A stretch of DNA of 59,850 bases from an uncultured Bacteroidales bacterium (GTDB taxonomy: Bacteria > Bacteroidota > Bacteroidia > Bacteroidales > UBA10428): the NCBI GenBank assembly GCA_964633305.1, contig CAZWGG010000001.1:1-59850 (forward strand), given 5' to 3'. Made by a program: the position numbers and the translations under genes. The notes below the pieces were generated by a model. The model had not been told where the DNA came from. It did no database searches and worked only from the letters and a program-made list of their open reading frames with translations. Of this stretch, positions 15,626 to 25,034 are shown piece by piece; position 1 is the first letter of the stretch; each line of letters opens with the position of its first letter.

Positions 15626-15775
15626 ATGTTTGATGATAAAAAGATTCTAATAACAGGGGGAACAGGCAGTTTCGGAAGAGCTTTTTTAAAAAGAATATTA
15701 AACGAACCTATTAAGAAAATATATATATTTTCAAGAGATGAATTAAAACAATCGGAAATGAGGAAGCTAATATGA
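15626..15775 (+). pseudogene. 49-codon N-terminal stub of a PseB/FlaA1/CapD-type UDP-GlcNAc 4,6-dehydratase
   Basis: Hand-translated [49 protein letters not shown]. Matches the Rossmann TGGTGSFG and [10 protein letters not shown] signature of the family. Full-length enzymes are over 320 aa. Confidence 0.7.
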
Positions 15776-16863
15776 AAGAAATGATAAGCTATGGACATCA
15801 ATATATTGATGATGACGACATTCAGGCAGTAACAGAATCATTGTTAGGACTTTCTTTGACTGGTGGAAAAATTATTGATAATTTCGAAAAAGATTTATGT
15901 AATTATACTGGGTTTAAATATGGAATAGTTGTAAATAGTGGAACAGCTGCTTTACATGCTGCTTTACATGCTGTTGGAATCAAACAAGGTGATGAAGTAA
16001 TCATTCCATCAATGACATTTGTCGCTACTGCGAATGTAGTTAGATATATGGGAGCAATTCCGGTTTTTTGTGATGTTAACGAATCGCTTTTAATTAATAT
16101 GACTACATTAGAAAATATGATAACAAAAAAAACTAAGGCGATAATATCAGTTGATTATGGGGGTCAATTAGTCGATTATAATCAATTAAGAAGAATTTGT
16201 GATAAATATAATTTGTTTTTTATTTCTGACTCGTGCCATGCGTTAGGAGCAATAAAAAAAGATTCTATTCTCAGTAGACCAGATATAATCTGTTATAGTT
16301 TTCATCCAGTCAAAAATATTACAACTGGTGAAGGTGGAGCATTTTTAACAAATACATCTTGGATTCATGAAAAAGGAAAAGCATTTAGAAATCATGGCAG
16401 GTATGAAAAATATGATAATTTACAATTCGACCTCGGATATAATTATCGTATGCCTGAAATAAATGCAGCTTTAGGCATATCACAATTAAAAAAGCTAGAT
16501 AAATTTATAGAAAGAAGAAAAAAAATTGCAAATGGTTACATAAATGCATTTAAAAATATGAATATAACTTTAAAACAAATTAATGAAAATGTATGGCATC
16601 TATTTGTTTTAAAAGTAAAAAATAGATTTTCATTTATTGAGCATATGAAATCTAAAAATATTAATTGTACAATTCATTATCCTCCTGTATATGACCATCC
16701 TTATTATAAACAACAGGGATATTCAATAAATTGTCCATATACAGCAATGATTAAAAATAAAATAGTAAGTATTCCTATTTATTACAGTTTACCCAATAAC
16801 AGTATCGCTGAAATTATAGCAATTATAACTGATTATATGTATAAAAATGAAAAGGAGTTATAA
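15772..16863 (+). CDS. DegT/DnrJ/EryC1 (PseC-like) PLP-dependent sugar aminotransferase
   Basis: [11 protein letters not shown], and the PLP lysine in [14 protein letters not shown]. 363 aa. Confidence 0.8.
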
Positions 16864-16865
16864 AT

Positions 16866-17483
16866 ATGTCGAGAATTATATTAGATTTTGGGAGTGGAAA
16901 TACTTGTAAAAATCAGAAATCATATATTAGAAAGATGTATGATGAATTAAAAAGAATTGATAGAAATAAACATGAAATTATTGTTAAATGGCAGCTATTT
17001 AATAGAGCAGGAATAAATATTTCATTAAAACAAGAAATGTTTAATTTTGCTTATGAATATGGAAATGAATTAGGATATAAAGTAACTGCATCTGTTTTTG
17101 ATAAAGAATCATTAGATTTTTTACTACTTCATGATATACCATTTGTTAAAATTGCTAATAATAGAATGTTAGATTATTTAATTCCTAGTATTCCTGAAAA
17201 TATACAACTTTATATTTCAGGAAATACACCGTTGTGGCTGCCTGAAAGAAAAAAGAATGTAACACAACTATGGTGTATAAGTGATTATCCAGCAAATAAA
17301 GATGATTATATGAAAATGAAATTATCTTTAGGTTGTGCTATTTCTGACCATACTACAGATTTTTATTTATTTAGAACATTGATGCCACGTATTATTGAAT
17401 GGCATTATAAATTAGGTAATTCAACAGGTTTAGATTCTGGAGACTTTGCAAGAACTCCAGAGCAATTAAAAGAAATTTTATAA
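16866..17483 (+). CDS. short NeuB/PseI-family (sialic-acid-synthase-like) TIM-barrel protein lacking a SAF domain
   Basis: VKWQLF, ASVFDKESLDFL, PFVKIANN, CISDYP, AISDHT and IIEWHYKL are collinear with NeuB motifs. Confidence 0.5.
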   Translation: MSRIILDFGSGNTCKNQKSYIRKMYDELKRIDRNKHEIIVKWQLFNRAGINISLKQEMFNFAYEYGNELGYKVTASVFDKESLDFLLLHDIPFVKIANNRMLDYLIPSIPENIQLYISGNTPLWLPERKKNVTQLWCISDYPANKDDYMKMKLSLGCAISDHTTDFYLFRTLMPRIIEWHYKLGNSTGLDSGDFARTPEQLKEIL

Positions 17484-17603
17484 ATTAAAATATAAGAATA
17501 TAGTTAATATAAGTTAGGGGTTCGAATCCTTACTCAGCTGGGAAAAATCTATAGTGTAGAGGGCACGATATTAATTATACTCTTAAATATTAAGGAGAAT
17601 TTT

Positions 17604-22606: not shown

Positions 22607-22618
22607 AAGGAAAGTAAT

Positions 22619-23281
22619 ATGATAGATGTAATTTATTTATCAGGTGGACAGGGAGTTAGAAGTGAATTAGGATTTCCTAAGCAATTTTCAAGAATTAATG
22701 GAAAACCAATATTAATTTATGGACTTGAAACTTTAAATAAAATACCTGAAGAAATAAGAACTATTATAATTCCATGTACTAATCAAGCGGAAACTTATAA
22801 GTATATGAATGATTATAATATAAAAAAATATAAACTTTGTGAATATGGTGAAACAAGACAGCAATCAGTATATAAAGCTTTGAAATTTGTTAAAACTGAA
22901 TTTGTATTGATAATGGAAGCGGTTCGTCCTTTTGTTTCTATTGAATTAATAAAGAAAGTACTAGAAACTGAAAGTGATTTTGTTGTACCAAGAAATATTA
23001 TGTATTCCACAGTTATTACAGATTATGGAACTATTATGAATAGAAATGATTGTGGGGAAGTCCAGATGCCTCAAAAGTATAAAACTAAATTACTTAGAAA
23101 CTGTCATGAGTATGCAAATTGCAATAAAATAACTTATACCGACGATTCTGCTTTAGTTATAGCAAATTCATTTTGTATTCCTTGGGTTATAGTAGGAGAA
23201 CAATGTAATATAAAAATAACTACACCTTTGGACTTAAAATTAGCGGAGGGCATCTATGAATATTATAATAACAGGGAGTAA
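22619..23281 (+). CDS. IspD/TarI-family cytidylyltransferase (CDP-alditol synthesis)
   Basis: LSGGQGVRSELGFPKQFSRINGKPIL N-terminal signature. Confidence 0.75.
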   Translation: MIDVIYLSGGQGVRSELGFPKQFSRINGKPILIYGLETLNKIPEEIRTIIIPCTNQAETYKYMNDYNIKKYKLCEYGETRQQSVYKALKFVKTEFVLIMEAVRPFVSIELIKKVLETESDFVVPRNIMYSTVITDYGTIMNRNDCGEVQMPQKYKTKLLRNCHEYANCNKITYTDDSALVIANSFCIPWVIVGEQCNIKITTPLDLKLAEGIYEYYNNRE

Positions 23282-23891
23282 CAGGGGAATTGGTGCTGCA
23301 ATAGCTAAAAATTGGTGTAGTTTGGATTCGAAAAATTTATATTATGGGATATCTAGATATAATGATTTTGATGTTAAAAACTCTAATTGTTTAGATGAAT
23401 TATTATCATTTGAATTTGAAAAAGAATATAGACCCATAGCATTAATAAATAATGCTGGAACAATAAAGCTAGGAAGTATAAATGAGTTATCTTTTGATGA
23501 CTGGAAAGAGCAATTTGACGTTAATGTCCATGGTGTTTTTAATTGCTCAAAAGCATATATAAAATACTGTATGAAAAATAATATAGAAGGCAAAATAATA
23601 AATATTGCTTCAACTGCTGGTCTAAATGCTAGACCTGGTCGAGCTGCATATTCAGCAACAAAGGCAGCTGTTATAAATTTTAGTTTAAGCTTATCTGAGG
23701 AATTAAGAAGTTATAATATTAAAGTTTATTGCGTATGTCCGGGTGCGTGTGATACAGACATGAGACATTATATAAATCCTGACGATGATTTTGAAAATAT
23801 GATGAAACCTGAAGAAGTTGCAATTTTTATTTGTGACTTAATAAATTATGGAAACAACTTAGATGGACAGATTTTAACTATAAAAAAATAG
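23256..23891 (+). CDS. short-chain dehydrogenase/reductase
   Basis: TGSNRGIGAAIA cofactor motif, NNAG, catalytic YSATKAA. Confidence 0.8.
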   Translation: MNIIITGSNRGIGAAIAKNWCSLDSKNLYYGISRYNDFDVKNSNCLDELLSFEFEKEYRPIALINNAGTIKLGSINELSFDDWKEQFDVNVHGVFNCSKAYIKYCMKNNIEGKIINIASTAGLNARPGRAAYSATKAAVINFSLSLSEELRSYNIKVYCVCPGACDTDMRHYINPDDDFENMMKPEEVAIFICDLINYGNNLDGQILTIKK

Positions 23892-23903
23892 AAAGGAAAC
23901 AAT

Positions 23904-25034
23904 ATGAATGTAACAATTTTAAATACTGCTCACTTTGAAATAACAGTTGGTAAATATACATTTAAACCTTTTAAAGAAGTAAGTATAAGTATTGCCCCAG
24001 TAGATTCAGTCTTTAGAGATATGCGGTGTGAAAAAATGTTGAGAATAAATCGAATAAATAATAAACAATTTATTGAAACTTATGGATTGAAACATAACGG
24101 AAATACTTTTAATTTTTGTTATGATATTCAGTCACAACACGCAGGGGAAGCTTATAAATATGCGATACAAGCACTTGCAAATCCAATAATTAAGCATCTT
24201 GATAAAAGTGGATTATCAAATAGACCATTAACATCTATTAATTGTAGATTTTTTTCTGCAAAAAGAATAAATCAACAAATGAAAGTTCCAATAGGTCCGA
24301 AAGATGTATTTTTTTCGCATGGAATTGGTGATAAAAATTATTGGATTGGGGACAATATAAACGATTATAAATATGCGTTTGTTCCCGGCCCAGCTTGGGA
24401 AAAGCGAATGAGAGAGACAAGATATAAAGGTCAGATTTTCATTTGTGGATATACAAAGTTAGATCCACTATTGAATAATGAATTAAAAAGAAATTTATAT
24501 GATAAACCTTATGTAGTTTGGGCTCCAACGCATGGATACGTAGGAAAAGATACTGGAAGAAGTACATATCCAGAATGTTTAGAATTAATAAAAAAAATAC
24601 CTGAAGAATATATTACGAAAATTGCTTTACATCCAACATCGAAAATGAATGCAAGAATAAAGCATACACCCACATTACAAGAATTGATGGATGCTGATGT
24701 AGTAATCGCCGATGCTGGAAGTACACTTTATGAAGCATGGATTTTAGGCAAACCAGTCATTTTTCCTGACTGGATATGCAAAAAATCAGTGCTTAATCAT
24801 TTTAAAAAAGATACTAATAATTTTGAATATAGAATTTATAACGAAAATATTGGGTATCATGCAAAAGATATGAACGAATTGAATAGAATGATTGAAATAG
24901 CTTTAAAAAACGGTATGGGACAACAAGAAAAAGAATTCATTAATGATATATACCCAGAAAATATAAGAGGACATGCGGGGGAAATAGCAGCAAAACAATT
25001 AAAATCAATTGCAAGTTCTTTAAATATTAAATAA
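23904..25034 (+). CDS. TagB/TagF-family CDP-alditol/glycerol phosphotransferase
   Basis: VVWAPTHG and ADAGSTLYEAWILGKPVIF resemble the Glyphos_transf core. 376 aa. Confidence 0.55.
   Translation: MNVTILNTAHFEITVGKYTFKPFKEVSISIAPVDSVFRDMRCEKMLRINRINNKQFIETYGLKHNGNTFNFCYDIQSQHAGEAYKYAIQALANPIIKHLDKSGLSNRPLTSINCRFFSAKRINQQMKVPIGPKDVFFSHGIGDKNYWIGDNINDYKYAFVPGPAWEKRMRETRYKGQIFICGYTKLDPLLNNELKRNLYDKPYVVWAPTHGYVGKDTGRSTYPECLELIKKIPEEYITKIALHPTSKMNARIKHTPTLQELMDADVVIADAGSTLYEAWILGKPVIFPDWICKKSVLNHFKKDTNNFEYRIYNENIGYHAKDMNELNRMIEIALKNGMGQQEKEFINDIYPENIRGHAGEIAAKQLKSIASSLNIK

Follow-up and report, generated by a model that had tools for sequence, protein, structure and literature searches.

A constant CDP-polyol and TagF-like gene triad in a variable glycan island of a phage head-gene block: a candidate system for virion glycosylation

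Phage-encoded glycosylation is known for DNA, for host O-antigen and teichoic acid and, recently, for mycobacteriophage virions. The present analysis concerns an island of glycan genes (15626-25034) in the 59,850-nucleotide contig CAZWGG010000001.1, a strongly AT-rich phage genome (GC 0.265) that is referred to as the window throughout. The important part of the island is a constant triad of genes, which encode an IspD-family cytidylyltransferase, a short-chain dehydrogenase/reductase (SDR) and a 376-aa protein resembling TagF. To our knowledge, a self-contained CDP-pentitol and TagF-like module has not been described as a phage core gene set that co-evolves with the capsid.

The closest described enzymes are the polyol-phosphate transferases TagF, TarL and TarK, Cps3D and the CroT domain of Bcs3. 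The 376-aa protein shares with them the GT-B fold (TagF, Cps3D and TarL were its top structural matches), the C-terminal CDP-binding motifs GYxxxD, APT(W/F/H), HP and D-x-SS-x-YE, and an adjacent gene for CDP-polyol synthesis. Its family is distinguished by scores below the PF04464 and NCBIfam cut-offs, by small size without a membrane-association domain and by its place as a phage core gene. For the donor, the nearest systems are Bcs1/Acs1 of H. influenzae and TarI/TarJ, in which an IspD-family enzyme is likewise paired with a reductase just upstream of a TagF-like gene. The CDP-ribitol synthase Bcs1/Acs1 carries IspD-like and SDR domains in one protein, whereas the window has two separate genes, a short SDR (211 aa) and an IspD protein below the ribitol-5-phosphate cytidylyltransferase cut-off, with a predicted substrate. 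We take the order of IspD and overlapping SDR before the TagF-like gene to follow the logic of Bcs1 (IspD-like plus SDR) and Bcs3 of H. influenzae type b, and of TarI, TarJ and TarL.

Virus-encoded, autonomous multi-step synthesis of a virion glycan is known from the fibrils of Mimivirus (reviewed in PMC9614988). Its pathways also include an aminotransferase and a pyruvyl transferase. WcaK-like pyruvyl transferases of giant viruses are listed in BFVD. Unlike the present locus, these pathways belong to eukaryotic giant viruses, are not known to include polyol-phosphate and are phylogenetically unrelated. Among phages, SP-15 carries a sugar cluster of comparable size (~10 kb) with glycosyltransferases, nucleotide-sugar enzymes and a CDP-glycerol glycerophosphotransferase annotated as the canonical teichoic-acid enzyme; unlike the window, it has genes for a hydroxymethyl-dUMP synthase and a polymerase of its own, hypermodification of its DNA is known and the cluster lies outside the head module (PMC5977210). 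The phage clusters that Pyle et al. (10.1101/2023.12.21.572611) describe from metagenomes combine genes for glycosyltransferases, cytidylyltransferases and HAD enzymes and lie close to ParB, terminase and structural genes. The window shares with them a TET-associated glycosyltransferase (TAGT) but has no 5mYOX or ThyS, and its TAGT belongs to a separate module that is dispensable in the clade. For mycobacteriophages Che8, Corndog and Myrna, PMC11600133 and PMC12619734 (citing Freeman et al. 2023) describe virion glycosylation by phage glycosyltransferases and an O-methyltransferase. These clusters comprise three to four genes and use host nucleotide sugars; polyol-phosphate, pyruvyl and nonulosonic-acid chemistry and a TagF-like enzyme are not reported for them. 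An earlier note, made from the letters of the window, had called a multi-step glycan pathway of ~9.4 kb inside a phage morphogenesis region unusual and a candidate for an undescribed system; multi-gene glycan clusters of phages have precedents in SP-15, Pyle et al. and the mycobacteriophages (PMC5977210, 10.1101/2023.12.21.572611, PMC11600133). The present locus differs from the known systems in its self-encoded CDP-polyol branch, its new TagF-like family, its constant-plus-variable architecture and its place in the core of the head-gene block.

The 376-aa protein matched zero Pfam families, no PHROG and no usable NCBIfam family. Its match to NCBIfam TarB was slight (E 7.5e-4, 18.8 bits, cut-off 500), and the thresholds of Pfam PF04464 and of the NCBIfam equivalogs were not reached. 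Pfam domains were equally absent from its close homologues (0/345), whose long contigs measured approximately 55-62 kb. An AlphaFold2 (AF2) model prepared with 30 homologues (pLDDT 91, pTM 0.88) had a GT-B fold of two Rossmann-like domains. When this model was searched against the PDB with Foldseek, the best match was TagF (3l7m; E 4e-9, TM 0.52), followed by Cps3D (8qoy) and TarL with CDP-ribitol (8va1); UDP-GlcNAc 2-epimerases ranked below these. Foldseek against BFVD returned generic GT-B glycosyltransferases only.

Two sequence profiles were used, A1 comprising the phage clade only and A2 including distant cellular and actinophage homologues as well. Against the PDB, A1 gave chance matches only; A2 matched Cps3D (E 6.7e-5) and TarL (E 7.6e-5). 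In the A2 alignment, GYtkLDplf corresponded to GYPRID/GVPRTD, waPTHg to APTWRG/APTFRG, lHPt to MHPF and aDvvIaDagstlYEAW to DLLI(T/S)DYSS(I/L)IY(D/E). Invariant in all members of the family were H139, P208-T209-H210, H243-P244, D270 and E277. H139 lies in the motif SHG(I/L)(G/A)DK, which is invariant in phage and cellular members alike; the alignment of A2 with TarL begins downstream of it, and its equivalence to the catalytic histidine in the N-terminal domain loop (H444 of TagF and H300 of TarL) is positional only.

An exhaustive profile search of 1.84 billion cluster representatives (50% identity) returned 340 clusters at E<=1e-3, which makes this a small family. Most of these clusters were of ~290 aa without the first ~70 residues, and a few lay within multidomain proteins of 1,400-1,570 aa. 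The phage form has a clade-specific N-terminal domain of ~70 aa that the cellular homologues lack. An NTP_transferase or IspD-like gene adjoined the homologue in 4/4 cellular loci examined (Lederbergia, Paenibacillus, Syntrophomonas and a deltaproteobacterial metagenome-assembled genome (MAG)), which points to a nucleotide-activated donor made by a neighbouring gene well beyond this phage; the Lederbergia homologue also adjoins a glycerol-phosphate-dehydrogenase-type Fe-ADH and GT2/GT1 genes. In an Actinocorallia prophage (L032) a TagF-like homologue lies between the coat and tape measure genes, and in Thermobifida phage P1312 one follows the tail genes, beside an O-methyltransferase. P1312 was the only match when phage records were searched by tblastn, and no SP-15 record was matched. 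Model and profile together place the 376-aa protein with the TagF/TarL/Cps3D polyol-phosphate transferase superfamily, as a predicted transferase of an unannotated family.

The SDR and IspD genes share a 26-nt overlap, and all triad loci keep the pair. The IspD protein scored 82 bits against NF001183 (ribitol-5-phosphate cytidylyltransferase; cut-off 166) and 137 against the ispD equivalog (cut-off 181). By analogy, the core product would be CDP-pentitol or another CDP-polyol, with CDP-ribitol as the best guess.

The related loci and contigs compared are labelled by L-numbers. Triad-bearing loci were selected by the triad itself, and a separate, unbiased sample was found through the portal or large terminase (TerL) protein. 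In all triad-selected loci the triad lay between the minor head gene and the scaffold and major capsid protein (MCP) genes, which in the window bound the insertion zone upstream (13440-14630) and downstream (29534-31238). The order IspD, SDR, 376-aa protein at the downstream end of the locus was constant except in L091, where a Rha-like gene sits between the IspD and SDR genes. In L011, L017, L018 and L094 the triad is shortly upstream of the scaffold and MCP genes, with no primase gene in between. Every clade member of the portal/TerL sample with sequence past the minor head gene showed sugar genes there. Distant relatives (TerL and MCP ~41% identical) had a gap of ~1.6 kb between minor head and MCP genes, and the island was absent. 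Because the relatives share the position and the distant relatives are without the island, its insertion is read as old and as the mark of a clade with genomes of 55-62 kb.

Upstream of the triad the loci varied. L087, L089 and L091 encode PseB, PseC, a GNAT acetyltransferase, a 205-aa NeuB-like protein and a CTP_transf_3 CMP-sugar synthetase, with a transferase of nonulosonic-acid (NulO) type that is GT29 sialyltransferase-like in L087 and L089 and KpsS-like in L091; a WDGH protein is additionally present in L089 and L091. These gene sets would amount to a complete pseudaminic-type branch of nonulosonic-acid synthesis. The variable part of L088 comprises NeuB-like, FrhB-like, pyruvyl transferase, GT2 and GT32 genes, and that of L095 a nitroreductase, CTP_transf_3, pyruvyl transferase, GT2, a GT32/GT29 fusion and a 294-aa NeuB. 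In L094, DegT, a GFO/hexapeptide fusion, a phosphonate-type ABC importer and NTP_transferase precede the triad, which is followed by one 58-aa ORF and then by the scaffold and capsid genes. The importer genes of L094 (2062-4457; a phosphonate-type periplasmic binding protein, ABC ATPase and permease) would place a phosphorus importer in a glycan locus, unless that contig is chimeric.

The window itself combines a decayed Pse module (PseB stub, intact PseC, NeuB-like protein) with a cassette of L088 type. Positions 18095-18495 were 94.6% identical in nucleotides to L080, whereas the core proteins of the two were merely 52-62% identical. Cassettes move between clade members, which fits diversifying selection on an exposed glycan. 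The island is the window's own form of a hypervariable glycan locus, in which three core genes stay constant and the remainder varies.

Identity of the TagF-like protein to that of the window followed MCP identity (r=0.84, n=12 loci), exceeding that of scaffold and primase in 12/12 loci and that of the adaptor in 11/12. The triad appears to be a core, vertically inherited gene set of the clade and not a recently captured host fragment. Its GC (0.291) is that of the phage core (0.29-0.31), and the FrhB-to-GT32 cassette has a GC of 0.214. This lower value and the gene decay seen in the PseB stub could be taken to mean that the island is a mis-assembled or recently captured host fragment with no phage role. 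Such an origin is opposed by the core-like GC and conservation of the triad, by intact and closely packed ORFs on one strand and by the occurrence of the island at the same site, from minor head to scaffold/MCP, in >20 related contigs from many metagenomes. In addition, an independent 18.9-kb assembly (Logan contig, SRR9700623) reproduced the whole stretch that starts with the minor head gene and ends with the primase gene, and with it both junctions, at 100% identity. The fragment explanation is effectively refuted and hardly credible, and the chimeric assembly that the earlier note had raised is excluded as far as sequence allows.

The preferred reading, to which a probability of roughly 40% is given, is cytoplasmic glycosylation of virion proteins (capsid or tail) with a pentitol-phosphate glycan. 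The IspD and SDR proteins would make a CDP-activated pentitol, most likely CDP-ribitol as in Bcs1 of H. influenzae, and the phage-specific TagF-like GT-B enzyme would move pentitol-phosphate, by single transfer or by polymerisation, onto a hydroxyl acceptor. Further sugars would be added or tailored by the FrhB, pyruvyl transferase, GT2, methyltransferase and GT32 cassette of the window, or in relatives by a full pseudaminic-acid pathway with GT29 or KpsS-like transferases. The outcome would be particles with a teichoic-acid-like, antigenically variable coat.

A virion protein is the most likely acceptor because the enzymes are soluble, the locus is core and vertically inherited in the morphogenesis region and the phages look non-temperate. 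Several findings argue that the acceptor belongs to the phage: TagF-like identity follows MCP identity, as for a core gene set; the triad stands in the morphogenesis block and in several relatives shortly precedes the genes for scaffold and capsid; in two unrelated actinophages the TagF-like homologue falls within the structural module or closes it; the scans revealed no integrase and the close relatives are free genomes throughout; and the phage form has an N-terminal domain which the cellular homologues lack. The serotype-like variation of the cassettes points to an exposed product. Virion glycosylation by phage glycosyltransferases and an O-methyltransferase is established in mycobacteriophages, which favours a virion acceptor, and soluble glycosyltransferases and a methyltransferase are present in or beside the structural module of the window. 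The scaffold and MCP proteins are candidate acceptors. The earlier note had judged that the island would act on a cytoplasmic or pre-existing acceptor rather than build and export a polymer alone, which is reasonable, and virion-protein glycosylation was among its options.

Other points weigh against this reading, in which the acceptor is inferred from context. H139 is not rigorously alignable to the catalytic histidine of TagF/TarL. The IspD protein scored higher on MEP (methylerythritol phosphate) cytidylyltransferases (84 bits in the PDB, plant and bacterial IspD) than on TarI (55 bits); since it also passes neither NCBIfam equivalog cut-off, ribitol is an assumption. In the window, ~4.5 kb (Rha, HTH, primase, NUDIX) part the island from the scaffold gene, so the earlier placement of the island between head-assembly and capsid genes held for position and needs this intervening stretch added. 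TagF, TarL and prophage TarP likewise have no transmembrane (TM) helices, although their substrate is lipid-linked wall teichoic acid on the inner face of the membrane, so that solubility is also compatible with a host target. The genome moreover has a DNA-type glycosyltransferase (TAGT), and the TagF-like gene of SP-15 has been proposed to act on DNA (PMC5977210).

The host is probably a low-GC member of the Bacillota, because the named relatives of the endolysin were found only in Bacillota. Near-complete clade genomes (L021-L026) had been assigned to MAGs of Spirochaetes, Ignavibacteria, Clostridiales and archaea (Pacearchaeota, 'uncultured archaeon'), evidently by mis-binning, which could misdirect host prediction. 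A Bacillota host probably has teichoic acids, as would be needed if the island remodelled a host wall polymer. Soluble enzymes at the cytoplasmic face would then modify undecaprenyl-linked wall teichoic acid or a secondary cell-wall polymer, a host transporter would export it and the cell surface would be altered during infection, for example by blocking adsorption by progeny or competitors. The closest structures (TagF, TarL and Cps3D) all act on lipid-linked polymers, the pyruvyl transferase, GT2 and GT32 are typical wall-polymer enzymes, and cellular members of the 376-aa family sit in glycopolymer loci with GT2/GT1/GT4 genes. Wall turnover is, however, slow within one lytic cycle. The prophage enzyme TarP provides a precedent (cited in 10.1101/2023.12.21.572611), but the usual setting of surface conversion is missing here, with no integrase or lysogeny module found in the window and close relatives that are all free genomes. 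The triad is universal, vertically inherited and co-varies with the capsid, and is no patchy moron; the clade-specific ~70-aa N-terminal domain of the phage enzyme is missing from cellular homologues. Remodelling of the host wall is regarded as plausible but less likely than virion glycosylation.

Integrase families were absent from every family scan of the window, and close relatives in GTDB genomes were all free-standing contigs of 58-60 kb. Contigs of 112-122 kb were considered as integrated prophages and rejected: they are ~2x genome length, as expected of twofold concatemers, and only phage-type genes were present in the 10-kb flanks read. The phages look non-temperate. Receptor masking and superinfection exclusion, which the earlier note had put forward, and lysogenic conversion are less likely because no integrase was found and the close relatives are all free 55-62 kb contigs.

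Phage DNA is the other conceivable acceptor. The island would extend or tailor a glycan or phosphodiester-linked polyol on DNA bases, shielding the DNA from host nucleases, in analogy to the phosphoglucuronate on dihydroxypentyl-uracil of SP-15 or to sugar gene clusters acting on 5-hydroxymethylcytosine (5hmC). A TAGT (PF20691, 119 bits) and a ParB_N protein are encoded at 5076-6753, directly upstream of the small terminase (TerS) gene. Pyle et al. describe DNA-glycan clusters beside terminase and structural genes with cytidylyltransferases, HAD enzymes and a Kdo-like sugar acid (10.1101/2023.12.21.572611), the 10.8-kb SP-15 cluster with its CDP-glycerol glycerophosphotransferase was proposed to act on DNA (PMC5977210), and variable cassettes would also suit an arms race with restriction systems. 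No ThyS-like hydroxymethylase, TET/JBP dioxygenase (5mYOX), C5 methyltransferase or DNA polymerase was found by Pfam, PHROG and NCBIfam scans of all sufficiently large window ORFs; no DNA hydroxyl acceptor is evident, because the hydroxymethylase, TET/JBP and C5 methyltransferase are missing from what is essentially the whole genome. Pfam, PHROG, NCBIfam and PDB phmmer searches of the unknown ORFs at 814-1515, 1975-2745 and 2905-3978 gave no TET/JBP or ThyS candidates. The TAGT gene (5812-6753) lies 9 kb from the island, and the ParB-TAGT pair is a separate mobile two-gene module, present in unrelated phages and missing from triad-bearing clade members (L067 and L078, the same contigs as L014 and L015); the 376-aa family also matched no SP-15 record in the phage collection. 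A DNA acceptor is judged quite improbable.

The ParB_N-TAGT pair recurred in 29 IMG/VR contigs (GC 0.27-0.53) that otherwise have hardly anything in common with the window, apart from a TerS match in one of them. L096 and a Dysgonomonas prophage (L097) also have the pair directly ahead of the terminase; neither TET/JBP nor ThyS was present within 7 kb.

The coordinates of the features are collected in the table.

Table. Features of the window, in order along the sequence; an empty cell marks a value that was not given.
Feature	Position	Strand	Evidence or remark
ParB-like protein	5076-5903	+	
TAGT glycosyltransferase	5812-6753	+	
TerS	6777-7361	+	
TerL	7348-8835	+	
HAD-like phosphatase	8853-9389	+	phrog_1238; weak TIGR01689 (capsule biosynthesis phosphatase) match
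N6/N4 DNA methyltransferase	9516-10760	+	sole DNA methyltransferase found
Portal	11343-12902	+	
Minor head protein, SPP1 gp7-like	13440-14630	+	phrog_581 E 9e-55; Phage_min_cap2
Unknown acidic 155-aa ORF, head of island	15157-15624	+	no Pfam/PHROG/NCBIfam family; weak homologue in L003
PseB-type UDP-GlcNAc 4,6-dehydratase remnant, 49 aa	15626-15775	+	Polysacc_synt_2 on identical product
PseC/DegT PLP sugar aminotransferase, intact	15772-16863	+	PF01041 348 bits; TIGR03588 PseC 352 bits, under 423.5 cut-off
NeuB-like protein, 205 aa	16866-17483	+	PF03102 33 bits
Unknown 149-aa ORF	17604-18053	+	PF24729 (Acb2/Tad1 hairpin-like) E 0.004, under cut-off
2x[4Fe-4S] ferredoxin + FrhB/FdhB-like flavoprotein	18169-19260	+	Fer4 families; PF04432 80 bits; PF04422 26 bits
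Polysaccharide pyruvyl transferase (CsaB/WcaK family)	19265-20269	+	PF04230 84 bits
Soluble GT2 (GT-A) glycosyltransferase	20290-20991	+	PF00535 48 bits; zero TM segments
SAM methyltransferase	20988-21947 (alternative start 20943)	+	Methyltransf_23/31 E 1e-5, 25 bits, under Pfam cut-off; motif I ILDIGCNIG
GT32-like DXD glycosyltransferase (Gly_transf_sug / Caps_synth)	21965-22606	+	PF04488 52 bits; PF05704 35 bits
IspD-family cytidylyltransferase, core gene 1	22619-23281	+	PF01128 107 bits (cut-off 27)
Classical SDR reductase, core gene 2	23256-23891	+	PF00106 adh_short 142 bits
TagF-like 376-aa protein, core gene 3	23904-25034	+	no Pfam/PHROG family; placed by structure and profile
Rha	25053-25322	+	
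Cro/CI-type HTH protein	26009-26512	+	
Toprim primase	27678-28760	+	
NUDIX	28812-29318	+	
Scaffold	29534-30223	+	scaffold and MCP matched by phrog_4866 and phrog_10
Major capsid protein (MCP)	30246-31238	+	
Adaptors and tail tube	between MCP and tape measure	+	
Tape measure	34317-37100	+	
Amidase_3+SPOR endolysin	beyond tail genes	minus	
RecT, RecD2-type helicase, ERCC4, second GT2	after endolysin, in that order		
DUF927 primase-helicase	after second GT2	minus	

The island makes up 15.7% of the genome. The enzyme families listed by the earlier note were all recovered at the positions it gave, by Pfam/NCBIfam or, for the TagF-like protein, by structure and profile; its ten quoted peptide motifs were present (10/10), no island protein had a TM-like hydrophobic segment, as it had said, and the phage context it described was borne out by TerS, TerL, portal and minor head genes upstream and scaffold, MCP and tail genes downstream. 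The nonulosonic-acid synthesis to which it linked such families does not hold for the PseB, PseC and NeuB-like part in this phage. The PseB stub keeps the N-terminal Rossmann GxxGxxG alone and its ORF overlaps the start of PseC. The stub is 63-68% identical to the N-terminus of full-length genes (321-329 aa) at the same position in L005, L010, L087, L089 and L091, and is therefore read as a deletion remnant. No CTP_transf_3, GNAT or GT29 was among the Pfam families of the window. With a 49-aa PseB and with PseF (CMP-synthetase), PseH (acetyltransferase) and the NulO transferase missing, the pseudaminic branch appears decayed here, with no working nonulosonic-acid pathway; relatives have the full set.

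The length of the NeuB-like protein is conserved in the clade, with homologues of 205-219 aa (55-68% identical) in L003, L010, L021-L023 and L087-L089. It matched SpsE in the PDB with an E of only 0.026, scored 33 against the PseI equivalog cut-off of 340 and showed no significant similarity to the 294-aa NeuB of L095. The FrhB-like protein and the pyruvyl transferase are a partner pair, found also in L088. The N-terminal ~180 aa of the SAM methyltransferase matched no family and had no significant similarity to the GT29-methyltransferase fusion of L087; the independent assembly calls this gene at 319 aa. An ORF in the L088 island (3481-4041) gave the same weak, sub-cut-off Acb2/Tad1 hairpin match as the window ORF at 17604-18053; the domain is that of anti-CBASS/anti-Thoeris sponge proteins.

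The HAD-like phosphatase gene, between TerL and the DNA methyltransferase (8853-9389), is possibly linked to the island. A homologous domain heads the island of L014/L015, in an ORF that matches the CTP_transf_3-annotated gene of L095 in position and length.

The earlier note had also stated that the window holds no polymerase or exporter, which is not quite right for the synthase part. The second GT2 (53576-54610) has three C-terminal TM segments and a QRKRW motif and matches hyaluronan synthase 1 across the membrane region, as well as heparosan and chondroitin synthases. Small TM ORFs (52907-53557 and 54819-55264) flank it. By these features it is a candidate processive synthase.

From the TerS, TerL, portal and minor head genes upstream and the capsid and tail genes downstream, the genome reads as siphophage-like. 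The window is essentially a whole genome, since identical proteins were recorded on contigs of 59,850 and 60,443 bp. No cultured phage close to it was found, the best portal matches being ~30-33% identical, and megablast of the island against 50,697 phage records gave zero matches. No tRNA genes were found in the genome. A 279-aa ORF with an RVT_3/RNase H-like domain (45372-46211) lies between RecT and the RecD2-type helicase.

In L009, L089 and L090, the closest triad-bearing relatives, a NUMOD/HNH homing-endonuclease ORF splits the MCP gene (e.g. L089 17920-19737), which suggests an intron or intein-like insertion. In the window, the 5' part of the scaffold ORF (29594-29767) holds seven tandem repeats of 15/18 nt, and these code for a D/S/T/N-rich acidic stretch (DSTNEDDSTNDDDSKNDD...) that follows a hydrophobic N-terminus. 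This stretch varies among relatives and could be a Ser/Thr-rich modification site or simply low complexity. A 44-nt direct repeat (98% identical; 28749-28792 and 29319-29362) flanks the NUDIX gene, with the second copy ahead of the scaffold gene; a duplicated late promoter and a cassette-insertion footprint are both conceivable.

A 29-nt promoter-like element, TTTACA-N17-TACAAT, whose spacer is conserved (ATACATGCAAC[GA]TGA), occurs six times on the plus strand, at 746, 1582, 1903, 2834, 4668 and 46392. Each copy directly precedes an ORF, and none would be expected by chance; the element is probably a phage promoter/operator class. No copy (0/6) lies inside the island, and the closest upstream is that at 4668. 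A sigma-70 promoter scan did no better than chance in DNA this AT-rich. No plus-strand terminator-like site was seen between 12.9 and 31.3 kb, and only one on the minus strand. The terminator and promoter-element data are loosely compatible with co-transcription of the island with the packaging and head genes.

A wider form of the preferred reading is that virions of the whole clade of ~60-kb phages, with anaerobic Bacillota as hosts, carry a coat of teichoic-acid-like pentitol-phosphate glycan made wholly by phage enzymes, capped with pseudaminic-type acids in some members and pyruvylated or methylated in others, and that the clade-specific N-terminal domain of the new TagF-like family recognises a virion protein. 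This is doubtful. Were DNA the target, the locus would represent a new phosphodiester-linked base modification without a known hydroxymethylation route. With either target, the 376-aa protein represents an unannotated family, TagF-like and without a Pfam or PHROG entry, whose cellular members stand beside nucleotidyltransferases. If the virion is the target, polyol-phosphate modification would be seen on a virus particle for the first time, and a serotype-like variable locus would stand in the head-gene block. These phages would then wear a teichoic-acid-like, serotype-variable coat, with consequences for adsorption, for the evasion of immunity and defence, and for the pharmacology of phage therapy.

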